DNA of 64,000 nt, taken from a virus. Its lineage: Duplodnaviria > Caudoviricetes. The position numbers were made by a program, and so were the translations under genes. This document shows, piece by piece, positions 11,571-31,965 of the stretch. Below the pieces are notes generated by a model. It made no database searches. It saw only the letters and a program-made list of their open reading frames with translations, and was not told the DNA's origin. The stretch spans positions 8,227-72,226 of IMG/VR virus record IMGVR_UViG_3300029305_011788; one strand, given 5' to 3'. Each line of letters begins with the position of its first letter. Position 1 is the first letter of the stretch.

Positions 11571-14237
11571 TCAGATGACCACAAGATCATGGTCGGGTTC
11601 ATCATATACAGATCCCTGCATTTCGTGACGGATACATCTGTCAAGTGCCATGATCCAAGCCACAATGCCGTCAATCTTTTCTGTCGATTTCTTTTTACTC
11701 GGTTTGATGTTCTCCGCCGCATCAATTTCAGCAACCACATTGCCCGCCATCCAGCGCAGGACAGGGTTGCCGCCGTGTATAAACTGCCCTTCGAGAATGA
11801 GCTTGTACAGTTCTTTCATCGGCGGGGACATATCCTTGAAGCCCATGCCCATCGGAACAACGGTAAAGCCGTCACCCTCAAGGTCGGTGATAAGCTGTGT
11901 GGCATTCCAGCGGTCGGCAGCAATTTCCTTGATGTTGTACATCGTGTGCAGCTCGTTGATCGTTTTCCGCACGAAATTATAATCGACCACATTGCCCTCG
12001 GTGATATGAAATAATCCCATGCGCTCCCATACATCGTAGGGAACATGGTCTCGGCGCACTCGCAAATCAAGCGTTTCTCTTGGCAGCCAGAAGTGCGGGA
12101 CAACGATGTATTTCTCGCCGTCATGCAGCGGAGGGAACACCAGCACAAATGCCGTGATGTCCGATGTGCTGGACAGGTCAAGACCTGCGTAGCATTCCCG
12201 TCCCCGCAGTTTTTCAAGGTCGATAGGAAGATTGCCCCTGTCGTAGATATGCTCCGGAATCCATGCAACGATGCTACCAACCCACTGATCAAGACGTAGC
12301 TGACGGAATACATTTTCTTCCGCAGGATTCGTCAGTGCTTCACGGTGGGCATCACGCACTCGGTCAATGGTGATTGTGTATCCGAGCGATGGATTTGCCT
12401 TGTACCAAGATTCCTCGGCATTCCAGTCATCGCCGTCATTCAGTCCGTAGATGACCGGATAAAAGGACGGATCAATACGCCGTCCATCGAGAATGTCTTT
12501 TGCTTTGGTGTGATACTCGTAGCAGATGCTGTTGCGGTCAGTGCCGGCGGTTGTAATCAGGAAGTACAGCGGCTGAGTACGGGCATCGCCGGATCCCTTT
12601 GTCAGAACATCCACAAGGCTGCGGTTCGGCTGGGCATGAAGTTCATCCAAAACCAGACCGGATACATTCAGTCCGTGTTTTGTACCGACTTCTGCTGAAA
12701 GCACCTGATAGAATCCCACATTGCTGTAGTTCACCAGCCGTTTTGTCGCCGCCATGATCTTGGAGCGTTTCAGGAGCGCCGGTGTCATTTCCACCATTCG
12801 CTTTGCTACATCGAATACGATGGATGCCTGCTGTCGGTCGGCGGCTGCACCATAGACCTCAGCGGAAGGCTCATTGTCGGCGTAAAGCAGATACAGTGCA
12901 ATTGCCGCCGCAAGCTCACTGTTGTGCGTAGGCATAAACGATGTTCCTGCAAGATATTGGTGGCTCGGACTGTCCACCTGAATGCACTGCATTTTCACAG
13001 GATGATCCACAGGCTGAATGTCCAGTAAATAATGAAAACAGGAGCGAGTTTCTTCCACCCGCGCCCGTGTGCGTGTGTACTTTCGTTTCAGTCTTGATGT
13101 CGGCTGATCGTCAAAGGTAGTAAACCGGACGATATACAAAATCTCTCCGGTCGGCCACCCATGCCGAGTAGAAGGCTCACATTTCACTGCATTTTTGATA
13201 CCGAGCGACCACAGCAGTTCTCTGACGGAAAGCGCCAGTTCTCGCAGTGTTGTGACATACACACTTTGCCCCTTTCGTTCGCCGATACAGCCGTCCGAAT
13301 CCATCAGACCTTGCAGCAATGCCCACCGCTGCTCTGTGGATGCTCTCAGATATTCCGGTCGGATCTTTTTTTCACGGAAGCTGTCAAGCAGGACCGCCTT
13401 CAGTTCACTGTACTTTATGATCTCACTGCCGCCGCATTTCTGCGGATAACGGTTGTGTACCTTATACGGAATATTCGAGATGATGTCCTCGACATCCTCC
13501 GTCCGAACAGTAATCTCCGGCTTGGTGGCATTGCCGTTTCCGAGCCAGTAGCCGTACAGATATGGATCAATCGGTAAATCTGCCGCCTTTGTCTGAAGGA
13601 CACCGCATACCGGAATTCGGATAAGGGAATCCCGCTTTGACTGCGGTCTGTCGGAAAAACGCTGTCTGTATTCCGAAGTCCTGCGATAGATCTCACCGGT
13701 TGTCCAGAGGACATCTTTGCACTTGCCGTAAATATACTGACAGTTCCACAGATGCCGTTCTCCGGCGATGATCGAAGTGCCGTCTTTGAAGGTCAGCTTG
13801 TAGGCTTGCTCTGTATCATCCACAGGGCTTTTCGCAACCACATGGCACGGATTTCCGTTCTCATCAAATACAGTATCTCCGACCTTCAGATCGCCCATAT
13901 TGGTGAATCCCTGCGGAGTCGGAATAGGCGTATCCAGAGCGAGCTGCTTTCCATTTTTCTTTGGAATTTCGACATAGGCTGTGCGGAATTGCCTCGTATC
14001 ATCCTCTTTGACGATGCCAAAAATGTCACGAATGATCTGTTCCTGCCACGGCAATAACCAGAACGGCTTTCCCGCCCATCTGCCTTTGGTATGGCACAGG
14101 TTTTCAATGAAGCGCACAGCCCTGTCCGCCTTCGCCGCATCGTAGTGCGATTCCGGCAGCATGAAGCGTGTCGGCTGGTAGTTCTTCAGCTTCGGATAGT
14201 TTTTCGGGCGCTCCCGCGCCCTTGCCGTTCCTGCCAT
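11571..14237 (-). CDS. terL: Terminase large subunit containing an intein
   Basis: PKKNGK/S Walker A interrupted by intein; LDELH Walker B; GLDLSSTSD nuclease motif; KIDGIVA. Confidence 0.95.
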   Translation of the reverse strand: MAGTARARERPKNYPKLKNYQPTRFMLPESHYDAAKADRAVRFIENLCHTKGRWAGKPFWLLPWQEQIIRDIFGIVKEDDTRQFRTAYVEIPKKNGKQLALDTPIPTPQGFTNMGDLKVGDTVFDENGNPCHVVAKSPVDDTEQAYKLTFKDGTSIIAGERHLWNCQYIYGKCKDVLWTTGEIYRRTSEYRQRFSDRPQSKRDSLIRIPVCGVLQTKAADLPIDPYLYGYWLGNGNATKPEITVRTEDVEDIISNIPYKVHNRYPQKCGGSEIIKYSELKAVLLDSFREKKIRPEYLRASTEQRWALLQGLMDSDGCIGERKGQSVYVTTLRELALSVRELLWSLGIKNAVKCEPSTRHGWPTGEILYIVRFTTFDDQPTSRLKRKYTRTRARVEETRSCFHYLLDIQPVDHPVKMQCIQVDSPSHQYLAGTSFMPTHNSELAAAIALYLLYADNEPSAEVYGAAADRQQASIVFDVAKRMVEMTPALLKRSKIMAATKRLVNYSNVGFYQVLSAEVGTKHGLNVSGLVLDELHAQPNRSLVDVLTKGSGDARTQPLYFLITTAGTDRNSICYEYHTKAKDILDGRRIDPSFYPVIYGLNDGDDWNAEESWYKANPSLGYTITIDRVRDAHREALTNPAEENVFRQLRLDQWVGSIVAWIPEHIYDRGNLPIDLEKLRGRECYAGLDLSSTSDITAFVLVFPPLHDGEKYIVVPHFWLPRETLDLRVRRDHVPYDVWERMGLFHITEGNVVDYNFVRKTINELHTMYNIKEIAADRWNATQLITDLEGDGFTVVPMGMGFKDMSPPMKELYKLILEGQFIHGGNPVLRWMAGNVVAEIDAAENIKPSKKKSTEKIDGIVAWIMALDRCIRHEMQGSVYDEPDHDLVVI
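12921..13946 (-). mobile_element. 342-aa intein with LAGLIDADG homing endonuclease, class-3 signature
   Basis: QLALDTPIP start, HLW block B, MQCIQVD block F, THN/S end; YLYGYWLGNG and LLQGLMDSDG endonuclease motifs. Confidence 0.9.
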
Positions 14238-14710
14238 CAGCCACCTCCGAGCAATTCATCCATATCGTCAACGGCAGCGTTTTTCATATCCGCACCGGCT
14301 GTGATACGGCTTCTTGCCGCCGGAGTCAGACCGAACTGCTCTGCGATCTTATTCATGATTTTCAGATAGGTCTGAGCAATGGACACCTGCGGAACCTGCT
14401 GCCAGTAGCCGGACTTCGTTTTTACAATCGTACCGTGCTGCGTCATAAATTCCTCGGCTTCCTTCCAACGGGCGTATGCCTGACAGTACGATGCGAATGC
14501 CGCCTGATCGACCTCGGTTAGCACACCGATCTGTTCGAGCTGTTTAGACAGCCTGCGCCATTCCTTTTTCGCTTCCGGCTCCAACCACTTCGGACAAGGC
14601 GGCGCTTTGCGTTCCGGCTTCGGCTCTGCATCATTCAGCGGACGCTTGCCCGGATTTCCTTCCAGCTCTTTGATCGCTGTCGGCTTTGGTTTTCTGCCTC
14701 TCTGAGCCAT
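14237..14710 (-). CDS. terS: Terminase small subunit, P27 family
   Basis: GRKPKPTAIKELEGNPGKR and FGLTPAARSRI motifs. Confidence 0.92.
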   Translation of the reverse strand: MAQRGRKPKPTAIKELEGNPGKRPLNDAEPKPERKAPPCPKWLEPEAKKEWRRLSKQLEQIGVLTEVDQAAFASYCQAYARWKEAEEFMTQHGTIVKTKSGYWQQVPQVSIAQTYLKIMNKIAEQFGLTPAARSRITAGADMKNAAVDDMDELLGGG

Positions 14711-14795
14711 CCGCATCACTCCTTCCTCAAAAAATCTGCATAAAGAAAAGACCTGCATGCTGCAAGCCTCTCCTATGTATAAAACCACCATGAAT

Positions 14796-15059: not shown

Positions 15060-15124
15060 CCGCTTCACCTCCTTGCCGTGGGGCGATGGGGCGGCTTTGT
15101 GCTGCCGCCCGCCGTCCGTTTTGT

Positions 15125-15349
15125 TCAGTTGAACTTGTCGAGGAGCATCCGAAGGACTGCCTTGGTGTCCTTGTCAGCCGCCCTGACATCCATGCCCCGG
15201 TCGTAGTTGAAAACCGTCTCGCCGTTGCGCTCAATCCAGATCTTCGAGGCTCTGCCCTCCTTGTAGCCGAACTCGCTGGGCTCCTCGAAGTGCTTCACGC
15301 TGTAGCGGTATTCCCTCCCGTTGTAGTTGATCGTGCCGTGTGTCCACAT
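15125..15349 (-). CDS. Small cassette protein (DUF7678-like)
   Basis: MWTHGTI...NYDRGMD; directly after promoter copy P1. Confidence 0.7.
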   Translation of the reverse strand: MWTHGTINYNGREYRYSVKHFEEPSEFGYKEGRASKIWIERNGETVFNYDRGMDVRAADKDTKAVLRMLLDKFN

Positions 15350-15387
15350 AGTGTTTACCTCGTTCTTTCGTAGTTTTCGGTAGGCTT

Positions 15388-15495
15388 TGCCCTTCCGTTG
15401 TACCCATATTACCATAGGTCGGCGGATATATCAAGCGGCTAAACTGCCAGAATGTGCAGGGCGATTTTTCGGCGTTTGTTGTACATATTATGCCT
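15388..15495 (-). promoter_or_regulatory. Cassette promoter module P1
   Basis: TTGATA-17-TAATAT, upstream TTTAGCCGC and ATGTACA box, leader ACAACGGAAGGGC. Confidence 0.8.
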
Positions 15496-15506
15496 TTCCC
15501 CAGAAG

Positions 15507-15595
15507 GCGCACAGTCGCCCTGTGTGGGCGGCTTTCAGTGTGGGGCAAGTTATCCGCAGGAGCCTCAAAAGCCGCGACACAGGCGAACGTGGCGC
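15507..15595. repeat. Long imperfect hairpin repeat R1 (89 bp)
   Basis: GCGC...TGTGTGGGCGGCTTT / AAAGCCGC..CACAGGCGAACGTGGCGC arms, core GGGCAAGTTATCC. Confidence 0.8.
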
Positions 15596-15635
15596 GGAAC
15601 AGCCCCTCCGCAGAAGGACTGCTCCGTTTTGGCAA

Positions 15636-15908
15636 TCAGCCGCCGTAGTACTCCTCGATGTACTGTGTGCCGTCCTCCTCGGTGACCACGCTGGGGAACC
15701 GTACCTTGTGTCCCTGCTCGGTCATGATGCCCGCGGCAAGGTCGGCGATCTCACCGAGGAATGCCATGTCCCATTCGAGGTCGGGGTTCTCGGTCAGCAC
15801 CTTGCAGAATTCAAAGGCTGCCTCGTAGATGTCATCGTTGCGGTCTGCTTGCGCATCGGTCAGTTCCAGATTCTCGGCTTCGCCGCACTTTGTAGTGTTC
15901 TCGTTCAT
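15636..15908 (-). CDS. Small acidic cassette protein
   Basis: 90 aa, about 22 D/E versus 5 K/R; ACGGAGG RBS after P2. Confidence 0.75.
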   Translation of the reverse strand: MNENTTKCGEAENLELTDAQADRNDDIYEAAFEFCKVLTENPDLEWDMAFLGEIADLAAGIMTEQGHKVRFPSVVTEEDGTQYIEEYYGG

Positions 15909-15949
15909 GTAGATTTCCTCCGTTTTTCGTTGTTTTCGGTTCGGTTTCC

Positions 15950-16050
15950 CGTTCCGTTGTACACACTATAACTCTTTTTTCGCACATTATCAAGCGTGAG
16001 TAATCACGATCATACCGGCTGTTTTTTGCACTGAATTGTGTACATTATAG
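15950..16050 (-). promoter_or_regulatory. Cassette promoter module P2
   Basis: TTGATA-17-TATAGT, ATGTACA box, leader ACAACGGAAC. Confidence 0.7.
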
Positions 16051-16063
16051 CTTGCGGTAAATT

Positions 16064-16152
16064 GCGCCAGAACGCGCAGTGTGGGCGGCTTTTATCTCAG
16101 GGCAAGTGATCCGCAGGAAAGCCGTAAGCCACCACACAGGCGAACGTGGCGC
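16064..16152. repeat. Long imperfect hairpin repeat R2 (89 bp)
   Basis: Same ends (GCGCC... / CACACAGGCGAACGTGGCGC), core GGGCAAGTGATCC. Confidence 0.8.
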
Positions 16153-16155
16153 AAG

Positions 16156-16335
16156 TCAGGGCTTGCTGTTTCTGCCCAGCTCGTAGGCTCTTGCCAGCAT
16201 CATGCGGAGCGTCATTATGCTGACCTCGGTGGTATCCGCATCAATGCCCCGGAAGTCCAGCCCGCCGCGCTCAGCAAGCACAAGGCTTTCTTCCATTGCG
16301 ATCTGCTCCAATGCCTTCTGGATTTCGGTATCCAT
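16156..16335 (-). CDS. 59-aa protein, DUF6900-like (not in ORF track)
   Basis: MDTEIQKALEQIAMEESLVLAERGGLDFRG...ARAYELGR; AAAGGAG RBS; similar to C-terminus of 18497-18862. Confidence 0.7.
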   Translation of the reverse strand: MDTEIQKALEQIAMEESLVLAERGGLDFRGIDADTTEVSIMTLRMMLARAYELGRNSKP

Positions 16336-16389
16336 GTATGCGCTCCTTTCGGTGGATGCCGCCCCTCCGGAGAAGGGCGGCTCGTTTTC

Positions 16390-16752
16390 TCAGCCTGCGA
16401 AGTTTTCAAGGTAGTCGCTGATCGCCTTTGCCGTTTTGGTGTAGTCCGCTGCGGTTGGGCGGTAGCCGTACCACTTGGGGTCATTGTAAGCCGTCCAGAC
16501 GTAAAGCCCGTCGTGCTTGCCCCAAAGGTCCTCGAACTTCACCGTCAGGCTGTCGATCTTGCCCTCGGTGCGGTTCAGCACCGTGATCAGGATGCCGTAG
16601 CGGCGGTCCGCCTCGATGCATCTTGCGAACTCGACCTTCACCGTGGTGGTGTCGGTCAGGCGGGCGATGCAGGCGCTTCCGACCAGCTTGGGGTTCTTCA
16701 TGGCGGTGACCTTTGCGGTCATCTTCTTCAGTTCGGTTTCAAAAAAGTTCAT
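16390..16752 (-). CDS. Hypothetical cassette protein
   Basis: MNFFETELKKM..., 120 aa, ACGGAGG RBS after P3. Confidence 0.75.
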   Translation of the reverse strand: MNFFETELKKMTAKVTAMKNPKLVGSACIARLTDTTTVKVEFARCIEADRRYGILITVLNRTEGKIDSLTVKFEDLWGKHDGLYVWTAYNDPKWYGYRPTAADYTKTAKAISDYLENFAG

Positions 16753-16790
16753 GGTGGAATCCTCCGTTTGTTTTATTCGGCGGGGCGTTT

Positions 16791-16897
16791 GCCCTTCCGT
16801 TGTGTCACATATTACCATGATCTCCCCGGAATAGCAAGCGGCTAAACTACCAGAATGTGCAAGGCGATTTTTCGCTGATTGTTGTACATATTATGCC
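16791..16897 (-). promoter_or_regulatory. Cassette promoter module P3
   Basis: TTGCTA-17-TAATAT (TGG-extended), leader GTGACACAACGGAAGGGC. Confidence 0.8.
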
Positions 16898-16912
16898 GCC
16901 GCCCGAAGGCGC

Positions 16913-16936
16913 GGAGCAGAGCCGAAGCCCTGCCCC
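16913..16936 (-). repeat. 24-nt cUUCGg hairpin, identical copy at 19701-19724
   Basis: GGGGCAGGGC TTCG GCTCTGCTCC at the 3' end of a cassette; no U-tract. Confidence 0.7.
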
Positions 16937-16944
16937 TGATGCGG

Positions 16945-17322
16945 TCAGAGCATTACGCGGATGCCTTCGACCTCGTAGTCGTCCATGACATGATAGTCGT
17001 TGTCGTTGCGGGTAATGGAATCAAGCCCATACACCGTACAGCCGAGCCGTCTCATCTGATGCAGTGCTTCAATCAGAACTGTGGTTTTTGCCGTTACCAC
17101 AATGGTTGTGATATTGGCAATGCGGAGCGTGTTAAGAAAATCCTCCATGTCGCCCTCGTTCGGCAGGTCGGTCACTTCGTACTTGCTGCTGTTGTGACGG
17201 CGGCTGTCCTTGTAGTTCCACAGTGCCTTCCTTGCACCGAGGCTGTAGCCCGACTTCTGACCGTTGCTCTTGCGTTCGTAGATTTTGCGATCCATCTGTT
17301 CAAACGTGTAAATGATATCCAT
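16945..17322 (-). CDS. Hypothetical protein (DUF7698-like)
   Basis: MDIIYTFEQM..., AAAGGAG RBS; family recalled, unverified. Confidence 0.7.
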   Translation of the reverse strand: MDIIYTFEQMDRKIYERKSNGQKSGYSLGARKALWNYKDSRRHNSSKYEVTDLPNEGDMEDFLNTLRIANITTIVVTAKTTVLIEALHQMRRLGCTVYGLDSITRNDNDYHVMDDYEVEGIRVML

Positions 17323-17377
17323 GTATTTTCTCCTTTCGGCATTCGGCTGCCCGGTGAAGGGCAGCCCCGCCTTTGTT

Positions 17378-17734
17378 TTAGTCAATAATGTGCAGCACCA
17401 CCATGCCATTCGGTGTCGGGATGAAGATTTCAGGCTCCCAGAAGATTGCCTTGTACTTTTCGATCTGCTCATCGGTCAGCCCTGTGAAATCCTCGAAGCC
17501 CAGTCCGCAGACGAAGAAGGTACCTTTGATCGGGCCGTATTTCTCAACCGTTCTGTTCCATGCAAGGTCATCGCGGAACAGCCCCTCCTCGTTGCACACA
17601 ACGGCGATGTTGTCGGTTTCGCTCGGATACAAGGCCTGAATGTAGCCATCCACCTCCGCCTGAAGGTTCTCAAGGGTGTGTTCGATGTCCTTGACGTAGG
17701 GGCGCTTGCCGGGTTCGCATACCAGAATTTTCAT
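17378..17734 (-). CDS. DUF3846-like protein
   Basis: MKILVCEPGKRPY, LQAEVDGYIQ, VCNEEG, IKGTFFVCG motifs. Confidence 0.8.
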   Translation of the reverse strand: MKILVCEPGKRPYVKDIEHTLENLQAEVDGYIQALYPSETDNIAVVCNEEGLFRDDLAWNRTVEKYGPIKGTFFVCGLGFEDFTGLTDEQIEKYKAIFWEPEIFIPTPNGMVVLHIID

Positions 17735-17770
17735 GTAGATTCGCTCCTTTTGTATGATTCCGCTTGTCTG

Positions 17771-17870
17771 GCGGTAGTGACATATTAACTCTTTTTCTGC
17801 GATAAGTCCACGCCTTTTCGCAAAATAAATGTACCAGACATGAGCCGATATTTCAGGCGGAATTGTACAT
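17771..17870 (-). promoter_or_regulatory. Cassette promoter module P4 (TGGACT variant)
   Basis: TGGACT-17-TAATAT with ATGTACA box upstream. Confidence 0.7.
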
Positions 17871-17880
17871 CGCAAAGAAC

Positions 17881-17969
17881 GCGCACAGTCGCGCCGTGTG
17901 GGGCGGTTTTCCGCAGTGGCAAGTTATCCGCTGTCGCCATGAAAAGCCCCACACAAGCGAACGTGGCGG
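17881..17969. repeat. Long imperfect hairpin repeat R3 (89 bp)
   Basis: GCGCACAGTCGCGCCGTGTGGGGC / GCCCCACACAAGCGAACGTGGCG. Confidence 0.8.
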
Positions 17970-17970
17970 C

Positions 17971-18249
17971 TTATTCCGCCCTCTGCCGTGCAAGCTCTGC
18001 TCTGAGCTGTGTCAGTTCGCATAGCATCTCAAATGAGCGTCCGTACTGCTCCATGTATGCAGCGATGTCGTAGTCTGCGCAGCACAGCAGCTCGAACTTG
18101 TCGGTCACGCCGTTCTTTCCGACCGTGAACTTTGCCTTTCTCGGAAACTGCCGGTCGAGCGTGCCTTCAAAGCCGTGCTTGTTGAACCAGTCGATTGCGT
18201 ACATCTCCTCGTTGGAAAGTACCCTTGTCGCTTTGATCAGGTCGATCAT
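17971..18249 (-). CDS. Hypothetical cassette protein
   Basis: 92 aa, ATGA overlap with upstream ORF. Confidence 0.7.
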   Translation of the reverse strand: MIDLIKATRVLSNEEMYAIDWFNKHGFEGTLDRQFPRKAKFTVGKNGVTDKFELLCCADYDIAAYMEQYGRSFEMLCELTQLRAELARQRAE

Positions 18250-18434
18250 TCTTTCTCACCTCCGTATTCCTTAAGGTAGGCGTTCACGCGGTCGCCGTAG
18301 CCCATCTCAGCAAGCTCCTGCGGTTCAAGGACTTCCAGAAGTGCTTCCATTGCAATCCGCTCAGTGAGCAGTCCATCCGTTGAAAGGTTCGCAATGATTG
18401 CGGTCAGGCATCTGACCTGTTCGTATGTATCCAT
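18246..18434 (-). CDS. Hypothetical cassette protein
   Basis: 62 aa, GGAGG RBS. Confidence 0.65.
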   Translation of the reverse strand: MDTYEQVRCLTAIIANLSTDGLLTERIAMEALLEVLEPQELAEMGYGDRVNAYLKEYGGEKE

Positions 18435-18496
18435 GTTCTTTCCTCCTTCGGGTTTGGCAGCCCCTCCCTGCGGAAGGGCTGCGCTGCTCCGTTCGT

Positions 18497-18862
18497 TTAC
18501 TTGCTCTTGCGTCCTGCCTCATAGGCTTCTTTCAGGGCTGCTTCCAGTCCCCAGACCGAAACCTCGATGAAGTCCTCGCGGTCGCAGTGGCGGGTTTCGA
18601 GGTCTCCGCGCTCGGCTACCAGAATCAGGTGCTTTGCGGCAATCTCGTAGACCTTCTTGTCGATGCCCTCCAGCGGATGCTCGGCTCTCTGCAGCTCGCG
18701 CTCGTATTTGGCGATGCTGCTGTCCATGTTCTTCAGTGCCTGCGCCTTTGAGATACCGTAGACCTCAAGGCAGACCTCTTCGGTCATCTGCTCGGTGGCG
18801 GCTCTGCCGTTCCGCAGGAAGTTCAGGGTGGTCTTGATCTCGTTCAGCTTTTTCTTGGTCAT
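18497..18862 (-). CDS. Protein with C-terminal DUF6900-like domain
   Basis: DLETRHCDREDFIEVSVWGLEAALKEAYEAG motif; after P5. Confidence 0.75.
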   Translation of the reverse strand: MTKKKLNEIKTTLNFLRNGRAATEQMTEEVCLEVYGISKAQALKNMDSSIAKYERELQRAEHPLEGIDKKVYEIAAKHLILVAERGDLETRHCDREDFIEVSVWGLEAALKEAYEAGRKSK

Positions 18863-18902
18863 GGTGGTGTACCTCCGTTTTTTGTTTTCGGCTGGGCTGT
18901 CT

Positions 18903-19003
18903 GCCCTTCCGTTGTGTCACATATTACCATGATCTTTCCGGAATAGCAAGCGGCTAAATGTACAGAATGAAATCGGCGTATCTTCGTCATTTGTTGTACA
19001 TAG
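18903..19003 (-). promoter_or_regulatory. Cassette promoter module P5
   Basis: ATGTACA-N30-TGTACATTTAGCCGC-TTGCTA-17-TAATAT-GTGACACAACGGAAGGGCAGACAGCCC. Confidence 0.85.
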
Positions 19004-19032
19004 TACACCATGCCCACAGGAAGTTCACAAAT

Positions 19033-19120
19033 GCGCCAGAATGCGCCGTGTGGGGCGGTTTTCCGCAGGGGCAAGTTCATCGCTCACCGCAGGAAAACCG
19101 CACACAGGCGAACGTGGGGC
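19033..19120. repeat. Long imperfect hairpin repeat R4 (88 bp)
   Basis: GTGTGGGGCGGTTTTCC / GGAAAACCGCACAC arms, core GGGGCAAGTT. Confidence 0.8.
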
Positions 19121-19146
19121 AAGCCAGCCCCGCAGGGCTGAACTTG

Positions 19147-19530
19147 TCAGCCCTCGGTCGGCGGAATCCACTGTCCCGTCCTTTCATCGAAAAGGTAGTA
19201 ATACGGGATGCCCCAGTCGTCTCTCATCAGCGAAACAACGCTCTTGTGGGTGACCGCAGGCTGCATCGGCTCGTTGCGGTCGCGGTGGTATGCAACCGTC
19301 ACGCCCTCCGCGGGCTTCTCGAAGCTGTGCGGCTCGTCCGCATCCGGCGCAAGGCGCTCACCGAGGATGCTGATGTCTCCGAGGGCAAGCAGCGCCTTGA
19401 CCTTCTCTGCGGTGTTGTAATGCTCGGTGAGGATCGGCATCTGGTGGTCGGGGTAGCCGTCCCAGTGGCAGTAGATCGTTTCCGTGGTGCCGTCCTCGTG
19501 CAGGATGCCGATTCTTGAATTCGTGCTCAT
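19147..19530 (-). CDS. Hypothetical cassette protein (STNSRIG...IYCHWDGYP type)
   Basis: Own promoter P6 and RBS; motif recalled from phage hypothetical proteins. Confidence 0.75.
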   Translation of the reverse strand: MSTNSRIGILHEDGTTETIYCHWDGYPDHQMPILTEHYNTAEKVKALLALGDISILGERLAPDADEPHSFEKPAEGVTVAYHRDRNEPMQPAVTHKSVVSLMRDDWGIPYYYLFDERTGQWIPPTEG

Positions 19531-19571
19531 GTTCATAGACCTCCGTTTTTTTTGTTTTCGGCGGGCTGTCT

Positions 19572-19686
19572 GCCCTTGCCGTTGTGTCACATATTACCAT
19601 GATCTAGCCGATAAGTCCACGTCTATGTGCAAAATAAATCGTAGAAGAATCGCCGTATTCACCCTTTCGTATTGTCGGATGTACAC
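19572..19686 (-). promoter_or_regulatory. Cassette promoter module P6 (TGGACT variant)
   Basis: TTTATTTTGCACATAGACG-TGGACT-17-TAATAT-GTGACACAACGG. Confidence 0.8.
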
Positions 19687-19732
19687 ATGAGTGAAAGGGT
19701 GGAGCAGAGCCGAAGCCCTGCCCCTGTTGCGT

Positions 19733-20227
19733 TCACCCCTTCAGCTCATCCTCGGTCATCAGCCTGAAGTTTTTGTCCTGCCAGAAGGAAATGTAAACAT
19801 CGTAGCGGACATCCCATTCGCTTTCGTAATATTCGTCTGCTTCCTCATCGTATTCCTCGCTGGTCTCGACCTCTGTATAGCTGTAGACCTCTCTCTGCTC
19901 GAAGCCCTCGCCCCAGCCGTCGCTGTACTGTCCGCTGAGGTATTCCTTGAGCTGTGCTGTGTCATCATCCGTCCAGTCGTCATCTACCTCGCAGGTGGCA
20001 AGTCCGTAGAGCTTTCTGCCAACCCACTCTGCGCTCATTGTGACCTTGTGGAGCTTTTTGTAGTAGGTTGCGCCGTGGTAGTCGTCTGCGTACTCGGCAA
20101 GGTCGGTATTGTCGTTCTCCAGTGTTTCGATAAGCTCTGCGGCGTACTCCTCGGCGGGGGCTGTGAAGCAGTTGCTTTCGCTTGCAATCTGGGCAATCAG
20201 CGGATTGTAAATTTTCAGGGTTTTCAT
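19733..20227 (-). CDS. Very acidic cassette protein
   Basis: 164 aa, about 41 D/E versus 13 K/R; GQYSDGWGEGFEQ motif. Confidence 0.8.
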   Translation of the reverse strand: MKTLKIYNPLIAQIASESNCFTAPAEEYAAELIETLENDNTDLAEYADDYHGATYYKKLHKVTMSAEWVGRKLYGLATCEVDDDWTDDDTAQLKEYLSGQYSDGWGEGFEQREVYSYTEVETSEEYDEEADEYYESEWDVRYDVYISFWQDKNFRLMTEDELKG

Positions 20228-20265
20228 GGTGGTGTACCTCCGTTTTTGTTTTCGGCGGGCTGTCT

Positions 20266-20374
20266 GCCCTTCCGTTGTGTCACATATTACCGCCTTTTGC
20301 CTGAAAAGTCCACGCCTATGTGCAAAATAAATCGTAGAAGAATCGCCGATTTTCGCAGTTATAACTGGTACATA
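20266..20374 (-). promoter_or_regulatory. Cassette promoter module P7 (TGGACT variant)
   Basis: Near-identical upstream part to P6; TGGACT-17-TAATAT; same leader as P5. Confidence 0.8.
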
Positions 20375-20483
20375 TACCAACGCCCCACAGGAGGCTCACA
20401 AACGCGCCGTGTCGCGCCCGAAATCCTCCCAACAAACAAGCGGCGCAGAGCCGTAGAGCCCCACACCGCCCGTTGTACGCCCC

Positions 20484-20687
20484 TTATTCGGGAATGTACT
20501 TGTCGTGGATGATGCCGAGGATCTTGTCCTGTTCATCGATGCTGATGCCCATGCTTTCGAGGGCTTCCCTCGTGCCGCAGTCGGGGCAGATCAGTGTATC
20601 GTTGTCGTAGCGGGACAGCGCCGGTCGCTCGGTGTAGGTGCGTCCGCACTTGGGGCATTTGCGTGGTTCGTTTACTCGGTCTTTCAT
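20484..20687 (-). CDS. Small zinc-ribbon protein
   Basis: CPKC...ICPDC, PALSRYDN motif. Confidence 0.8.
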   Translation of the reverse strand: MKDRVNEPRKCPKCGRTYTERPALSRYDNDTLICPDCGTREALESMGISIDEQDKILGIIHDKYIPE

Positions 20688-20738
20688 TTGAATTCCTCCT
20701 ATGTAGTTGGTGGTGTGCCGCCCGAAGGCGGCAGGCTG

Positions 20739-21002
20739 CTATTCTTCGGTTCGTTCGGTGTGGCTGAGGATCTCTGCGGCGCTGCCCGACTCTGCGTATC
20801 CGCAGTCCCAGATGGCGAGGAGCATCTCCTCGTCGGTTTCGGGAACCTTGATGCTGTAGGTGATCTTCCGTGCCCGAATGTCGATCAGCATCTTGGTGGT
20901 GATCTCAAGGAAGTCGGCGGGGATCTCTCTGGTCGTGCCGTCCTTTGCGATCAGGCGGACTCCGTGGCGGCGAAGGCTTTCAATATGTTCTTGGCTGGTC
21001 AT
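20739..21002 (-). CDS. Hypothetical cassette protein
   Basis: 87 aa, AAAGGAG RBS after P8. Confidence 0.7.
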   Translation of the reverse strand: MTSQEHIESLRRHGVRLIAKDGTTREIPADFLEITTKMLIDIRARKITYSIKVPETDEEMLLAIWDCGYAESGSAAEILSHTERTEE

Positions 21003-21030
21003 GTTCAGGACTCCTTTGCGTTATTTTCCC

Positions 21031-21132
21031 TTGCGGTAGTGACATATTAACTCTTTTCGGGGCTGATTGCAAGCGGCTAAATGTACAGATCATGATGGGC
21101 GATTTTTCGGCAGTCATTGTTCAATTTATGCC
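21031..21132 (-). promoter_or_regulatory. Cassette promoter module P8
   Basis: TGTACATTTAGCCGC-TTGCAA-17-TAATAT. Confidence 0.8.
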
Positions 21133-21144
21133 TTGCCCACATTT

Positions 21145-21235
21145 GCGCCGTGTCGCGCTGTGTGGCGCGGTTGACTGAGATGGGATAACCGTTCGGAGGA
21201 TACCCCTTCCGCCCCACACGGGGCGACGTGGGCGC
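21145..21235. repeat. Long imperfect hairpin repeat R5 (91 bp)
   Basis: GCGCCGTGTCGCGCTGTGTGG / CCACACGGGGCGACGTGGGCGC. Confidence 0.7.
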
Positions 21236-21287
21236 TGTGTGTGCGCCCGTGCCGTTCCGCTTTGCATCCGCCCCGCAGGGCAGGCCG

Positions 21288-22232
21288 TTAAGGCCTGCCG
21301 AAGCGGAATGCGTTGTCGCCAGTCAGGTTTTCAGTTAAAACCGTTCTGGCAGTCTCGAACTCGGCTCCGATAAAGCCCATTCTCATCAGCCAAGTCCGCA
21401 TTGCGAACTTTTTGTTTTCCTTCTGCTGTTCCTTGGGGCTTGCGCTTCTGAGGTCCTTTGCCATCTGGCTCATTGCGAGGCAAAGCTGAATGTAGCTCTT
21501 GAGCTTGCCTGCGTGGAGTCCGTTCTGCTTGCCGTTGGAAGGCGGTGCGAACTGGAAAAGTCTGAACTCGACCGTGCCTTTTGTGAAGGTCGCGTGCAGG
21601 TTGAGCATGTGGTATCGGCTGCCGTTGTAGTGGTGCGTTCTGCCGCTGCTGTAGCCCTGCGAACCGTACCAGATGTCCGCAAGCTGTGCCATCGTGCGGG
21701 GCTTTCTGCGGTTGAGCTGTTCAAGGAATCGCGGGTCAACCGTTCTGCAATACTGGCTCATTCTGTAGCTGTCAACCTTGATTGCCTCGGCGATCAGCGT
21801 TTCGTGGCTTGCCATGATGTTCGCAAGGTTTCTGAGGCTCTGCGGTGTGTGTCCCTGTGCGCCGATGTGAATGTGGACTCCGCATCCTCTTGTGTAGTCG
21901 CTCTTTGCGCCTGCCTTGCGGAGTCTTCTCACAAGCTCCTGCAGGGTTTCGATGTCTGCGTAGTGCAGGATCGGTGTGACCAGTTCGCACTTTTCGCTGT
22001 CGGAGCCTGCGATGCTGACATCCTTCTGGAACTTCCACTCGCGTCCCTGTGCGTCCCATGCGCTGTAGGTTTCGTAGCCGTTGCGGTGGCCTGTGTACTC
22101 GGTGCGGTCTGTGCCGAAGAACTCGGCGGCAAGCTGTGCGGCAGCCTTGCGGGTGATGTTGTTCATCTCGATCTCAACCCCAATGGTCTGCTCCTTCATT
22201 CTGTTGATCTGCTGTGCGGTCTTCTCAGTCAT
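21288..22232 (-). CDS. Putative amidoligase (COOH-NH2 ligase type 2)
   Basis: GVEIEM, KDVSI, CELVTPIL, CGVHIHIG, YHMLNL, TVEFRLF motifs. Confidence 0.9.
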   Translation of the reverse strand: MTEKTAQQINRMKEQTIGVEIEMNNITRKAAAQLAAEFFGTDRTEYTGHRNGYETYSAWDAQGREWKFQKDVSIAGSDSEKCELVTPILHYADIETLQELVRRLRKAGAKSDYTRGCGVHIHIGAQGHTPQSLRNLANIMASHETLIAEAIKVDSYRMSQYCRTVDPRFLEQLNRRKPRTMAQLADIWYGSQGYSSGRTHHYNGSRYHMLNLHATFTKGTVEFRLFQFAPPSNGKQNGLHAGKLKSYIQLCLAMSQMAKDLRSASPKEQQKENKKFAMRTWLMRMGFIGAEFETARTVLTENLTGDNAFRFGRP

Positions 22233-22269
22233 TTTTGTATCCTCCGTTTCGGTTTTCGGTGGGCTGTCT

Positions 22270-22370
22270 GCCCTTCCGTTGTGTCACATATTACCGTCTT
22301 TCGGAGGATATATCAAGCGGCTAAATGTACAGATCATTTCGGTGTATTTTTCCCGTATCTCTGGTACTTT
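22270..22370 (-). promoter_or_regulatory. Cassette promoter module P9
   Basis: TGTACATTTAGCCGC-TTGATA-17-TAATAT-GTGACACAACGGAAGGGCAGACAGCCC. Confidence 0.85.
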
Positions 22371-22412
22371 TACATACTTGATAAACTTGCAATTCTATGG
22401 TAAACTTGGATA

Positions 22413-22510
22413 CGATGGAATAGGTTCTCACATTTTCGGGAGCCCCAGTGCGGTATAAAATCGGCGGTCGGGAAGGCAGAAATCCAGCCCTGCCATTCCG
22501 CCGTTTTTTC
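22413..22510 (+). ncRNA. Candidate ~100-nt small RNA
   Basis: TTGATA(22378)-17-TAAACT promoter, 5' hairpin GGTTCTC/GGGAGCC, long 3' hairpin followed by T6; no ORF. Confidence 0.5.
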
Positions 22511-22511
22511 T

Positions 22512-22982
22512 TTATCTATACAGATGCCTTGTGCTTTGCTCGTAGGCTTCGTAGAGGAATTCGGGATCGAATCCGAATGACCGATAACCTGTCACGCAAG
22601 TCCAGAAGTATCGGGGTGTCGGTTCTCCGAGCCGTCGCTTTTCATTCATGATGTACAGAAAGCCGTTTGTCATCACCGTCCTGCCGCTTGCAGTGCGGAA
22701 CACCGGGAGTCTGATCTCCTTTTTATAGTAGCAGACCGGGCAGCCTTCGTAGCGATCGAGCATCTTCTCATGCTCCGCTGTGACCTCCCAGACCGCGATT
22801 GGAACAACGCCGTCCGGCTTCGGCTCGATGGTCAGGTAGAATCCGGTCTTGCTGCCTTTGAAGAGCAGCTCGTAACCTTCGAGCAGCGCCGTTCCTACCG
22901 GCTTTGCACCGGGGCATCGCATCTGCATCTGTCTGCGGTTGAGGTTGCTCCCGTAGGCGAGGTAGTATCTTTTCTTGCTCAT
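22512..22982 (-). CDS. Gamma-glutamylcyclotransferase (AIG2-like) 1
   Basis: YLAYGSNL and LDRYEG motifs. Confidence 0.9.
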   Translation of the reverse strand: MSKKRYYLAYGSNLNRRQMQMRCPGAKPVGTALLEGYELLFKGSKTGFYLTIEPKPDGVVPIAVWEVTAEHEKMLDRYEGCPVCYYKKEIRLPVFRTASGRTVMTNGFLYIMNEKRRLGEPTPRYFWTCVTGYRSFGFDPEFLYEAYEQSTRHLYR

Positions 22983-23019
22983 GTGATCTCCTCCGTTCAG
23001 GGTATTTGGCGGGCATCCT

Positions 23020-23126
23020 GCCTTGCCGTTGTGTAGCATATTACCATACCCTGCGGAGGTTATCAAGCGGGTAAATGTACAGATCATAACGGGCGATTCC
23101 TCGCCGTTTGTTGTGCATATTACGCC
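23020..23126 (-). promoter_or_regulatory. Cassette promoter module P10
   Basis: ATGCACA-N30-TGTACATTTACCCGC-TTGATA-17-TAATAT. Confidence 0.8.
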
Positions 23127-23138
23127 TTGCCGTAAAAC

Positions 23139-23226
23139 GCGCCGTGTCGCGCTGTGTGGGGCATAAACCGTAACGGAGTAACTGTCGGAGGATACCCGCA
23201 AAGCCCCACACAGGCGAGCGTGGCGC
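23139..23226. repeat. Long imperfect hairpin repeat R6 (88 bp)
   Basis: GCGCCGTGTCGCGCTGTGTGGGGC / GCCCCACACAGGCGAGCGTGGCGC. Confidence 0.8.
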
Positions 23227-23238
23227 ATTTGTGCGCGT

Positions 23239-23655
23239 TCAGCGGCCGGACAGAGATTCCTGCCGAGCCTGTTCGAGAAAGGTCATTTCAAGACCGTTCA
23301 TTTCATATCCCTCGCGGATGATGCTGTAGTAGCCGGGGCTGGGCGGTCGGACTCCCTTGCTGTTCATAATGTAGACCATCGCATCAACGGTCTTGCCGTT
23401 CAGCTCGACCTGCACTGTCTCCCTGCGGTAAAGGTGCGGGTAGCCCTCGTAGCGGTCAAGCGGAATCTCATCCGCAGGCTTGATGTTCCAGAGCAGAACG
23501 GGAACGCTGCGGTCGGGATCGGGCTCGATGGTCGCCACGCCGTTGAATACCAGCCGGTAGCCGTAGAGCGTACTTGTGCCGAGGACTTCGGCTGTGGGGC
23601 AGCGCCGCTGCATCTGCCCGATGTGAAGGTTTGAGCCATAGGCTAAGTAGATCAT
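23239..23655 (-). CDS. Gamma-glutamylcyclotransferase (AIG2-like) 2
   Basis: MIYLAYGSNL and LDRYEGYP motifs. Confidence 0.9.
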   Translation of the reverse strand: MIYLAYGSNLHIGQMQRRCPTAEVLGTSTLYGYRLVFNGVATIEPDPDRSVPVLLWNIKPADEIPLDRYEGYPHLYRRETVQVELNGKTVDAMVYIMNSKGVRPPSPGYYSIIREGYEMNGLEMTFLEQARQESLSGR

Positions 23656-23894
23656 GATTTTTCCTCCTCGTTGGTGATGATTGTGAATTCGTCTGCGCCT
23701 TCGATCAGGGAAAGCGTTCTGCCGTTGTCCCATTTCATATGGACATTGCCGGCATCGTCAATATAATCAACGGAACCGGTCGTTCCGGGCGGAATGGGTG
23801 CGTAGGGATCGTCCATGTGATTCAGGCGGATGCGGGTGCCTGCGGGATAACGCTCCCGCAGGGCTTTCAGTTCATGTTCATTCGGAAACCGCAT
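23652..23894 (-). CDS. DUF4314-like protein
   Basis: LRERYPAGTRIRLNHMDDPY...WDNGRTLSLI. Confidence 0.8.
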   Translation of the reverse strand: MRFPNEHELKALRERYPAGTRIRLNHMDDPYAPIPPGTTGSVDYIDDAGNVHMKWDNGRTLSLIEGADEFTIITNEEEKS

Positions 23895-24870
23895 CGTACT
23901 CTTCCTCCTCGGTGGTCTGTGCGGCTGCCTTTGCCGCCTCACGCTTTGCCTTTTGGCGCTCCGTCCATTTTGCCTTTTCCTCATCGTTGCGGAAAGCGGT
24001 ATGCCCGGTCAGATGCTCCAGAAGGATGCGGCGGTCGGTCTTGTGGTCTGCGCCGCCGAAGCCGATGCGTACCAGCCAGACGCGCATTGCGTACTTCTCG
24101 TTGCTGTCATCGACATCCTTTGCCTGCACGCGCTTCTGCGTCAGTGCCATGCTGTTCATCGCTGCGGCGAGGTTCGTGAATGCCTGCACATGGTCGGCAT
24201 CCGGCGCTTCACCAAAACCGTCAAAGATGAGCTTGTCATCGGCAAATCGGATGCCCTTCAGTTCAGGGTTCGTTTCTTCCCATTCTCTGATAAAGGCGAT
24301 CAGCTCGTAAGTGCTGCGGAACTCATGTCCGCCAATCTCATCCACAAGGCTCTTATCGGCGGCGAATGCTCCGCAGGTCGCCTTGCTGAGAAGTGCGCCC
24401 CTTGCGTGGATCATGCAGATGAGGTTCGTGAGGCTCTGCACCGTGTGGTCAGCCAGCGGAAGTGCGACCGTTACCGCAATCGGGAAGCCGTCCGTTTCGG
24501 TCTCCGGCTCATTGTCATTGGTGACCTCTTCATCGGTGTCCGGCGTATCCTCCTCGGTGTCGGAAATGATGGTCACATCAATCTCGACATAGTCCTCTTC
24601 GGCTTCCGTTACGGTATCCGTTCCTGCCGGCGGAGTGATTGTCTCGCCGTTGTAGCCTGCATCGGCAAGTCCGTCCAGCACCTTCTCCACGATCTCGGTG
24701 TCGCTGCGGTCGGTGAAGCTGAGGACCGCGTCCTTGCCGAGGGTAAAGATGTCGATCTGGTAGGCGCAGCTCGGAACGCCGAGGTACTTGACCTCTGCAC
24801 CGATGATCTCTGCGATTTTCTGTGCCAGTGCCTTGCGCTGGCTCTTTTCGATATTGTACTTGATTTCCAT
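23878..24870 (-). CDS. Hypothetical protein with amidoligase-like C-terminal segment (often labelled virulence-related)
   Basis: YLGVPSCAYQI N-terminus; NEKYAMRVWLVRIGF...LTGHTAFR. Confidence 0.8.
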   Translation of the reverse strand: MEIKYNIEKSQRKALAQKIAEIIGAEVKYLGVPSCAYQIDIFTLGKDAVLSFTDRSDTEIVEKVLDGLADAGYNGETITPPAGTDTVTEAEEDYVEIDVTIISDTEEDTPDTDEEVTNDNEPETETDGFPIAVTVALPLADHTVQSLTNLICMIHARGALLSKATCGAFAADKSLVDEIGGHEFRSTYELIAFIREWEETNPELKGIRFADDKLIFDGFGEAPDADHVQAFTNLAAAMNSMALTQKRVQAKDVDDSNEKYAMRVWLVRIGFGGADHKTDRRILLEHLTGHTAFRNDEEKAKWTERQKAKREAAKAAAQTTEEEEYDAVSE

Positions 24871-28289: not shown

Positions 28290-28303
28290 TTATTCCTCCT
28301 GAC

Positions 28304-28948
28304 TCAGACGTACTCGATGCGCCTGTCAGATTTTTGAAGCACGATAAAATACGCATGATACTTGCGGCTGTGCTTCTGATTCCGCTTTTGCCAGTCAGCT
28401 ACCAGTCGGCTTTTCGCAAGCAGTACAAACAGGTCTTTCGGATAAAAGCCGATCTTCACCGCCTCGTTGATGATATACACATGGCTCAGATGCTGCCTGC
28501 CGCTGCTGACCTTGTCCTGACACTTGAAGATCAGGATGCCGTCCGGTTTCAGAACTCTGTATGCCTCGGAAAGCATATCCGAATAGCATCGGTGCAGGCT
28601 CTTTTCATCGGGATATACACCGAAACGCCTGTTGATAATGTTGCCATCAGTTCCGTTCAGCGATTTCCCTTTGGTCGCCAGAAACGGCGGATCGAGCATC
28701 ATGCACGAAATACTACTGTCCGCAAGCGGAAGATGCCTTGCATCCGCCTGTACCACATCGCTCCGCTGCGGAGATATGTCAAATCGGTACTGTGGCAGAG
28801 CGATGTCCGTTCCGTTGTAGAAAGTCCCTGTGCTGAAGGTCGGATCGCAATCGATCTTTCCCTCCGGCACATGGAGCTTTAGAATGTTACGGATGATCTC
28901 GCCCTGATCGTAGCCGATGCTTTTTACAAGGTCAGGCATCGGTCGCAT
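28304..28948 (-). CDS. Compact amino-methyltransferase (DPPF)
   Basis: DPTFSTG SAM-binding-like motif, QADARHLPL, LDPPF, RVLKPDG. Confidence 0.75.
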   Translation of the reverse strand: MRPMPDLVKSIGYDQGEIIRNILKLHVPEGKIDCDPTFSTGTFYNGTDIALPQYRFDISPQRSDVVQADARHLPLADSSISCMMLDPPFLATKGKSLNGTDGNIINRRFGVYPDEKSLHRCYSDMLSEAYRVLKPDGILIFKCQDKVSSGRQHLSHVYIINEAVKIGFYPKDLFVLLAKSRLVADWQKRNQKHSRKYHAYFIVLQKSDRRIEYV

Positions 28949-29138
28949 TCCTGCATATCACAAGGAAATCCTCTCTGATCTGTTCTCTGTAGGCTGCCGC
29001 CACCGCAGGAATCTCATGCGTATACACTGGTCTGCCGATAAAGCCGGAAAGGTAATCGTACAGATATTTCAGATCATCGCCTTTCAGCATCGAAATCTCT
29101 GTGTACGCGGTCACGACCGCACATTCATGCTTTGTCAT
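28932..29138 (-). CDS. Hypothetical protein
   Basis: MTKHECAVVTAYT..., overlaps both neighbours. Confidence 0.65.
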   Translation of the reverse strand: MTKHECAVVTAYTEISMLKGDDLKYLYDYLSGFIGRPVYTHEIPAVAAAYREQIREDFLVICRNATDA

Positions 29139-31964: not shown

Positions 31965-31965
31965 C

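Follow-up and report, generated by a model that had tools for sequence, protein, structure and literature searches.

The accessory-gene array of a temperate, siphovirus-type prophage of Ruminococcus/Oscillospiraceae (Clostridia) carries a family of long imperfect hairpins, termed R, that is most likely a terminator-type insulator and also a shared sequence for gene swapping between related phages, and most likely not an integron-like recombination site. We give about an even chance to the analogy in which R would be the terminator or attenuator hairpin of a composite terminator-promoter linker comparable to the PeSL, the promoter-early stem-loop of T4-type myoviruses (Arbiol et al. 2010, PMC2839356; Comeau et al. 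2014, PMC4122927).

Hairpin repeats in the window

Repeat finding and a 21-mer search of the window, the whole 64,000-nucleotide stretch of viral DNA analyzed, recovered six imperfect palindromes of 90-92 nt (R1 to R6), all in identical orientation on the minus strand, which is the gene strand. The 21-mer search gave 5 matches, compared to 0.01 expected from shuffles. Six imperfect hairpins of near-constant length and one orientation, as described in the earlier note, were thus confirmed along with their coordinates. R1 (15507..15597; covariance model score 92.4 bits), R2 (16064..16154; 98.5 bits), R3 (17881..17971; 94.7 bits), and R4 (19033..19122; 82.9 bits) have a class I apex, and R6 (23139..23228; 94.8 bits) has a class II apex and the tail GTTTTAC; these copies were identified by repeat finding, the 21-mer, folding, and the covariance model. 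R5 (21145..21236; 72.5 bits), identified by repeat finding, folding, and the covariance model, has a class II apex with AUCCUCCG and no T-rich tail.

With RNA parameters, each copy folds on either strand into one long imperfect hairpin (-42 to -57 kcal/mol, z -1.5 to -4.8), and the three copies run with DNA parameters (R2, R4, and R6) gave the same long hairpin on both strands. The helix is near-continuous and GC-rich, with 28-33 pairs and recurrent internal loops. The right arm on the plus strand is near-invariant and its partner arm is variable with a mispaired middle, both as first reported. A variable center was also present; however, it is about 50 nt rather than 30-40 nt and falls into two classes, each with a conserved motif (GCGGATAACTTGCC in class I and TATCCTCCG in class II). 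A supposed degenerate copy near 20404 proved to be a rearranged remnant (20404..20474, minus strand), composed of a segment resembling the 3' arm and a GTGTGGGGC segment, and forming two separate hairpins when folded. It was detected by the repeat finder (families D7 and D13) but not by the covariance model of R.

Linkers between cassettes

The array is flanked by the methylase/replication block on one side and terS on the other. Every window copy sits between a cassette 3' end and the next promoter (6/6), as had been claimed, with a stop codon 0-45 nt upstream on one side and -35/-10 hexamers on the other. R2 starts 1 nt past the stop codon of the gene at 16156-16335, and the stop codon of the gene at 17971-18249 abuts the 5' edge of R3. 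A small GC hairpin lies ahead of R1, after the stop codon of the gene at 15636-15908, and R4 is preceded by a small hairpin, CAGCCC-TGCG-GGGCTG.

The promoters, all on the minus strand, are TTGATA-17-TAATAT at 15406..15434 (72 nt after R1), TTGATA-17-TATAGT at 15965..15993 (70 nt after R2), TGGACT-17-TAATAT in a type B linker at 17782..17810 (70 nt after R3), TTGCTA-17-TAATAT at 18921..18949 (83 nt after R4), TTGCAA-17-TAATAT at 21044..21072 (72 nt after R5), and TTGATA-17-TAATAT at 23038..23066 (72 nt after R6). The distance from R to the -35 hexamer is therefore 70-72 nt for five window copies and 83 nt for R4, and paired TGTACA boxes adjoin R within this interval. The slot from stop codon to promoter is filled by a hairpin in 10/10 window linkers: R in six, the remnant in one, small hairpins with a TTCG loop in two, and a canonical terminator in one. 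Hairpin, promoter, and leader together form a composite linker of about 250 nt between one small accessory-gene cassette and the next.

When relatives were included, a sigma-70-type promoter was found downstream of R in 47 of 51 distinct contexts, with a spacing of 70-73 nt in 39 of the 47 and in both linker types; four copies lack it. In three relatives, a ribosome-binding site (33 nt on) and a gene come directly after the R5 subtype, without a promoter.

Distribution of the R family

A covariance model built from the window copies was searched against related phage contigs and host genomes. In about 20 contigs of related uncultured phages it matched 63 copies, 50 of them distinct, and all 63 were on the gene strand just past a stop codon. 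Prophages in Ruminococcus callidus and Oscillospiraceae genomes also carried copies in clusters; the cultured strain R. callidus ATCC 27760 has variants of R. Each host genome had 4-9 model matches, nearly all of them clustered in prophage arrays; the search returned no genome-wide spread of R and no cultured-phage match. Matches to the 21-nt arm motif (≤2 mismatches) were likewise almost confined to prophage arrays, the two exceptions being solitary sites in G003. Positional orthologues are stable (80-97% identity) and paralogues are only about 70% alike, and the arm motif is kept across both these paralogues and the phage groups. In the window group the motif is better kept in the 5' arm, and in the R. 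callidus group in the 3' arm.

Possible termination and RNA processing

As a GC-rich hairpin directly 3' of genes and co-oriented with them, R occupies the position of an intrinsic terminator. Divergent family members in R. callidus and Ruminococcus prophages, among them variants X and Y of R. callidus, consist of a long hairpin with a run of 5-7 T immediately after the stem, and so look like canonical intrinsic terminators. Copies of the window group have a weaker T-rich tail (mean of 3.0 T in 8 nt, 38% compared to a 17% background). The R5 type, which has none, is the subtype tolerated inside operons. Canonical terminators elsewhere in the array were not enriched (17 found, 14.5 expected). 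Against termination, the window copies have no proper U tract, only this weak tail, and the stem is far longer and the sequence far more conserved than termination requires. In addition, another small hairpin lies upstream of some copies, and at L006:7836 and L008:12594 a terminator-like hairpin with a T-rich tail precedes R, so R is not the only 3' structure.

We infer that, in vivo, when transcription of the upstream cassette runs into R at its 3' end, R would form a long hairpin acting as a terminator or attenuator, and that the folded copy could remain as a protective 3' stem-loop on the upstream message. Each cassette would then be insulated from read-through ahead of the strong sigma-70-type promoter 70-73 nt on.

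The weak U tract also fits an unlikely explanation, compatible with attenuation, in which R is a processing and stability site of the RNase III type. Read-through RNA would fold into an imperfect duplex of about 30 bp; cleavage by host RNase III at its internal loops would separate the cassette mRNAs and leave behind a protective 3' hairpin. RNase III cuts imperfect hairpins between phage genes in the early mRNAs of T7 and the early RNAs of SP82, and R shares with those sites repeated, similar imperfect hairpins with internal loops, located between phage genes in the mRNA sense. The helices of R are long enough, the copies are intergenic and co-oriented with genes, and the R5-type copies inside operons, being without a promoter, must be transcribed through. 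In contrast to the T7 and SP82 sites, R cassettes have promoters of their own, so processing is unneeded for message separation, and the internal loops are not family-wide, variant X of R. callidus being nearly perfectly paired. Strand asymmetry was absent as well.

Folded RNA or duplex DNA

Sense and antisense strands of R folded equally well with equal G-U counts, arm-swap chimeras folded almost as well as native copies, indicating weak co-adaptation of the arms, and covariation across copies was weak. These data do not single out RNA over DNA as the selected form. Rfam 15 returned no match for the whole window at gathering thresholds, and nothing for 15300-23400 at E≤1 except one chance snoRNA match elsewhere. 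The structured RNA proposed in the earlier note stays a candidate, but one with no Rfam match, no strand asymmetry, and a covariation signal that exists but is weak.

Equal stability of both folded strands also fits a reading in which R would act as double-stranded DNA, as a protein platform, roadblock, or cruciform regulating or insulating the promoter at its fixed distance. The conserved arm motif, the 70-73 nt spacing in both linker types, and the adjoining TGTACA boxes are consistent with this reading, which we nevertheless consider quite unlikely. The arms are about 70 bp apart center to center, an unusual separation for a dimeric operator; a downstream promoter is lacking for four copies; spacing is about 66-78 nt in the R. 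callidus variants; no candidate binding protein was found; and the T runs after those variants point to termination at the RNA level.

Retention of the arm motif in paralogues of such low likeness hints at sequence-specific recognition. R could be the cis site of a putative dedicated phage factor that recognizes the motif, folded or duplex, for either phased-promoter control or structure-specific cassette exchange, a proposal that we regard as speculative and doubtful. If true, the first version would mean array-wide switching of accessory or anti-defense cassettes, and the second a cassette system of gut phages that resembles an integron but has no IntI.

Cassette junctions

In comparisons with relatives, homology breakpoints are concentrated at the 5' edge of R (positions 17966, 15593-15595, 16154, and 19125), with others 10-15 nt past R5 and at start codons. 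At R3, homology with relatives begins at 17966-17968, and R4 is missing at the orthologous junction in L006 and L013. Junctions of gain, loss, and replacement between related phages are beside R; the expectation that they would be at R was borne out to the extent that they adjoin it, but not that they fall inside it, since they flank it. R travels sometimes with the upstream gene and sometimes with the downstream unit. Conservation of the arms, both among paralogous linkers and from phage to phage, means that R and its promoter give homology at which related phages could gain, lose, and replace cassettes, and recombination there would be the cause of the junctions.

Presence or absence of R at one orthologous junction could instead reflect a selfish or decaying miniature inverted-repeat element, or a duplicated palindrome, with no function beyond homology. 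Near-constant length, inverted terminal arms with a variable core, and the weak co-adaptation of the arms are in keeping with such an element, which is nonetheless improbable. Neither a target-site duplication nor a clean insertion boundary was found at this junction, the four host genomes had no IS-like partners, and arm motifs were nearly limited to arrays. Moreover, gene-relative orientation is constant in all copies, promoter-relative position is fixed, and positional orthologues are stable.

A folded single-strand recombination or priming site (attC- or ssi-like), served in trans by a recombinase or primase and used for moving cassettes or starting lagging-strand synthesis, is highly improbable. 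The imperfect hairpin with lineage-conserved bulges that folds as single-stranded DNA (R2, R4, and R6) and the cassette indel junctions at R speak for it. However, the conserved mismatches recur within the window phage group only, and the extrahelical bases vanish in the near-perfect R. callidus palindromes, bulges being absent from variant X. Linkage of R shifts between the upstream gene and the downstream unit, and the cassettes carry their own promoters. The attC cores RYYYAAC (R'') and GTTRRRY (R') were found in 0/51 repeat-plus-flank sequences within 35 nt of the ends on either strand, and a sigma-70-like hexamer pair was found inside 0/51 copies on either strand. The window contains a single recombinase, a standard tyrosine integrase (Phage_integrase) at 61323-62396, 38 kb away, in agreement with the remark that none is adjacent.

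The attC, REP, and Frpo/ssi models raised in the earlier note were not supported. R resembles an integron attC site as an imperfect inverted repeat (57-141 nt) with a variable center at a cassette 3' end. An attC site is argued against by the missing R''/R' cores, the lack of an integron integrase (IntI), promoters on the cassettes themselves (attC cassettes are promoterless, with a common Pc and attI), and a cassette boundary beside R rather than a crossover in the R' core; the bulges are also not family-wide. Frpo is a hairpin whose stem rebuilds the -35/-10 hexamers, located in the leading region of a conjugative plasmid; an Frpo-type single-stranded DNA promoter is argued against by the lack of hexamers in R and by the prophage context.

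In gut and rumen Clostridia phages, the accessory arrays beside terS seem to be assembled from standard parts, namely a hairpin, operator boxes, a promoter, a leader, and an ORF. Were R both an insulating hairpin and a recombination handle, this would help explain how small genes are swapped without disturbing expression of their neighbors. The cargo is small, mostly unknown genes, such as amidoligase/GGCT pairs, DUF3846, and DUF6900, and a covariance model of R would be a practical marker for such arrays and their cargo in metagenomes.

Comparison with known systems

ERIC/IRU, Correia/NEMIS, RUP, and REP/BIME elements are intergenic imperfect palindromes of about 100 nt that fold in mRNA and can end, process, or stabilize transcripts. 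R is likewise an intergenic imperfect palindrome of about that size; in contrast, those families are genome-wide, with tens to hundreds of copies in both orientations, whereas R has 4-9 copies per genome, in prophage cassette arrays, co-oriented with genes and phased with promoters. REP/BIME elements in particular are short palindromes (20-40 nt), tens to hundreds per chromosome, linked to RAYT transposases, and this identity is argued against by the 90-nt size, the low copy number per host genome, and the clustering in prophage arrays.

R is similar to intrinsic terminators as a GC-rich, co-oriented hairpin at stop codons, with T runs in the R. callidus variants. It differs in a stem three times the usual length, a large apex, the weak tail of the window copies, and a sequence conserved beyond pairing alone.

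The PeSL combines a stem-loop terminator with a sigma-70 promoter; it recurs in hyperplastic regions and contains recombination junctions (PMC2839356; PMC4122927). R linkers share with it a composite intergenic unit in which a stem-loop with an optional U tract is followed by a strong sigma-70-type promoter, SD, and ATG. They also share many repeats amid small orphan genes and indel or replacement junctions in or beside the repeats. A stem-loop with a sigma-70 promoter among small genes was present for 6/6 window copies and 47/51 distinct contexts, and junctions in or beside the repeats were found between related phages. The differences are that R spans about 90 nt and has about 30 pairs, a 21-nt arm motif, and an apex of about 50 nt, compared to short polyG/polyC stems; that R sits 70-73 nt upstream of the -35 hexamer with two TGTACA boxes between; and that R belongs to a temperate siphovirus-type Clostridia prophage rather than a lytic T4-like phage. 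The PeSL, as described in PMC2839356, has no sequence relation to R, which makes this an analogy and not homology. If R does serve as both insulating hairpin and recombination handle, the PeSL concept would reach beyond lytic T4-like phages of Gram-negative hosts and cover temperate phages of anaerobic Firmicutes as well.

The repeat R in the window

The repeats were recovered where the earlier note had placed them (R1-R6 at 15507, 16064, 17881, 19033, 21145, and 23139), both by a repeat finder and by a 21-mer search (5 matches compared to 0.01 expected). Copies of R are 90-92 nt long, lie in a single orientation throughout, and fold into a single long imperfect hairpin of approximately 28-33 pairs; all six copies gave this fold on either strand under RNA parameters, as did the three copies folded under DNA parameters. 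The near invariance described for the plus-strand right arm, which is the sense 5' arm of R, was confirmed, and the mispaired middle was found to consist of several partner-arm versions that pair with the 5' arm in different registers. The degenerate copy proposed near 20404 was borne out in part; R-derived sequence is present there, but as a rearranged remnant rather than a degenerate full copy. The idea that class I (R1-R4) and class II (R5 and R6) differ by an inverted apex was considered and dropped, as visual alignment places both classes in one orientation.

The window covers most of a 72-kb IMG/VR provirus, and the genes at 0-54 kb are directed along the minus strand. These include DNA polymerase, helicase, primase, and NrdD (33-47 kb), a DNA methyltransferase block (25.8-32 kb), the array of small genes (15-25 kb), terS (14237-14791), and terL (11571-14237; 888 aa). 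The methyltransferase block (25818-31979) lies directly upstream of the array and holds at least 4 DNA methyltransferase genes, an 823-aa fusion protein, a ParB-domain fusion, and a PAPS-reductase-like gene. TerL has terminase matches in two parts (residues 31-101 and 439-880) with an insert between, which is compatible with an intein. Array cargo comprises DUF3846, DUF6900, DUF6809, several orphans, and two amidoligase/gamma-glutamyl-cyclotransferase pairs, which stand in succession among the cassettes on the minus strand at 21288-24870 (pair 1, 23878-24870 with 23239-23733; pair 2, 21288-22232 with 22512-22982). A tRNA/tmRNA scan found none. BLAST of the 10-kb array against cultured phages showed DNA similarity only at terS, to Blautia and Faecalimonas phages, and the linker had no match among cultured phages.

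Distribution of the R family

A covariance model built from the six window copies (cut-off E<1e-7) returned 63 copies, 50 of them distinct, in approximately 20 IMG/VR contigs retrieved through a 17-mer pattern; single contigs carried as many as 7-8. Members were also located, by another pattern scan and by searching whole genomes, in prophages of Ruminococcus callidus ATCC 27760, Ruminococcus MAGs, and Oscillospiraceae MAGs. Host genomes carry 4-9 copies each, clustered in arrays, and the arm motif (up to 2 mismatches) occurs almost exclusively in the prophage arrays; REP-like or IS-end-like spread of the motif was absent from four host genomes. This distribution marks R as a phage element specific to the arrays, as opposed to a REP-like repeat of the host. 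Comparison with Rfam, a check named beforehand, gave nothing for R at gathering thresholds or at E<=1, and nothing specific to the element was found in the Ruminococcus-phage literature. The R repeats form a genuine and uncharacterised family that is specific to phages. Paralogues within the window array share only about 70% identity, compared to 80-97% for positional orthologues from other phages, which indicates that the R subtypes are old and have not been homogenised within the array.

The R. callidus ATCC 27760 chromosome has several prophage arrays (near 1.65, 1.81, 1.91, and 1.96 Mb; loci L188-L190), which carry the divergent variants X, Y, and Z; some variants on this chromosome have canonical T runs. 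Because this strain is cultured and its genome is complete, it is a usable experimental system.

Linker layout and promoter phasing

In the direction of the genes (minus strand), a stop codon opens each linker and is followed by 0-45 nt, R, two boxes, a promoter, a leader, GGAGG, and ATG. The 0-45 nt gap contains a small GC hairpin in some linkers, the first box resembles ATAATATGTACAAC, the second is TGTACA, and the leader is conserved and has a small hairpin. Linker promoters consist of TTGATA, TTGCTA, TTGCAA, or TGGACT, 17 nt, and TAATAT or TATAGT. A sigma-70-type promoter lies downstream of R in 47 of 51 distinct contexts, and in 39 of those 47, with both linker types represented, the stem ends 70-73 nt before the -35. 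In the linkers at 15406-23066 and their relatives, the TGTACA box pair is shifted by approximately 10 nt between type A (TTGATA) and type B (TGGACT) while the R-to--35 distance stays at 70-73 nt; in R. callidus variants this distance is approximately 66-78 nt. That R serves the promoter as a protein site at the DNA level is improbable in our judgment.

Four copies had no promoter. Three are of the R5 type, a class II subtype, and lie within an operon, where a ribosome-binding site follows 33 nt later; the fourth is followed by unrelated AT-rich DNA. The class II apical loops (R5, R6, and about 13 relatives) share a conserved CCUCC-containing octamer (21194-21201 and 23186-23193; plus strand CGGAGGAT, sense RNA AUCCUCCG) that is complementary to cassette ribosome-binding sites (CGGAGG), including the type of site that follows the promoter-less R5-type copies. 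The octamer could be an anti-SD element in read-through RNA, or the complementarity could be chance.

The slot between the stop codon and the first box held a hairpin in 10/10 window linkers: R in six, the remnant in one, TTCG-loop hairpins in two, and a canonical terminator in one. Canonical terminators were otherwise not enriched in the array. The sole linker with such a terminator (22233-22511; CGGCGG...CCGCCG then ATTTTAT) also has a plus-strand promoter-like site at 22378-22406, a TG-extended TTGATA-17-TAAACT, which fits a counter-oriented small unit. Short intra-operon gaps (15069-15124, 16336-16389, 18435-18496, and 20688-20738) each have a small GC-rich hairpin that lacks a T run, such as GCCGCC-TTCG-GGCGGC, and such hairpins may stabilise RNA or act as attenuators.

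Junctions and cassette exchange

When the array was compared to relatives by BLAST, homology blocks began or ended where R has its 5' edge (17966-17968, 15593-15595, 16154, and 19125) and also at start codons. Cassette junctions in related phages do fall at or beside R, and three were examined more closely, by aligning them or comparing their flanks. After the gene at 19147-19530, R4 is present in the window and in related contigs L032 and L011, while L006 and L013 have only a small hairpin. A clean insertion of R4 with target duplication was not seen at this junction; the flanks differ, which indicates replacement. Contigs L008 and L034 lack one unit of the window (promoter, gene 20739-21002, and small hairpin), whose insertion point is 10-15 nt past R5 and immediately ahead of the following ribosome-binding site. 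The R3 subtype remains linked to its downstream promoter and gene with three different genes upstream, and the R2 subtype remains linked to its upstream gene with at least 5 different units downstream. R thus behaves like one component of a conserved linker, with exchange on either side.

Conservation at the RNA or DNA level

Folding energy over 50 copies was -41.8 kcal/mol for sense and -42.2 kcal/mol for antisense, with G-U counts of 2.8 and 2.6, and neither measure differed significantly between strands (Wilcoxon p ~0.33). When arms were swapped, native copies gave -41.8 kcal/mol compared to -40.3 kcal/mol for chimeras, a small gap, though one reached by only 2/2000 permutations. Pair counts on the model alignment showed two-sided changes in only 3 pairs, with a covariation score reached by 8/500 shuffles, and RNAalifold did not return the hairpin from the 63-copy alignment, owing to register shifts and insert columns. 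The R helix is upheld mainly by conservation of arm sequence, which fits sequence recognition, selection for homology, or simply a very stable stem that tolerates a few mismatches. An RNase III processing site is a minor possibility, and a functionless palindromic passenger is a distinctly doubtful one.

Probable terminator ancestry and relation to known systems

Of the divergent members from R. callidus-group prophages, variant X is a near-perfect palindrome with arms CCACGTTTCGGCGTGTGGGG and CCCACACGTGCGAACGTGG. In variants X and Y, runs of 5-7 T immediately follow the stem, as in canonical intrinsic terminators. The better conserved arm in variants X, Y, and Z is the 3' arm, which is complementary to the one that window-group copies conserve. 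Taken together, the near-perfect variant X, the T runs, and the switch of conserved arm indicate that ancestral R was probably a near-perfect palindrome, and the conserved mismatches are confined to one lineage. The tail of the window group is T-rich only (38% T in 8 nt compared to 17% background) and is missing from the R5 type, exactly the subtype found inside operons.

The earlier note had likened R to integron attC, REP, and Frpo elements. AttC cores were absent from 51/51 repeat-plus-flank sequences on both strands, promoter hexamers were absent from inside R in the 51 copies, and the arm motif had no REP-like spread in four host genomes. The sole recombinase of the window is a standard phage tyrosine integrase (61323-62396), and each cassette has its own promoter. 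On these results, R is not an attC, REP, or Frpo-type element, and any attC/ssi-like single-strand site is very improbable indeed. The reading we prefer, with about even confidence, is that R is the terminator or attenuator hairpin of a terminator-promoter linker and also a recombination handle. The closest described system is the promoter-early stem-loop (PeSL) of T4-type phages, in which stem-loop terminators joined to sigma-70 promoters are repeated among orphan genes and have recombination junctions inside them (PMC2839356; PMC4122927). R resembles the PeSLs in design but is not related to them by descent.
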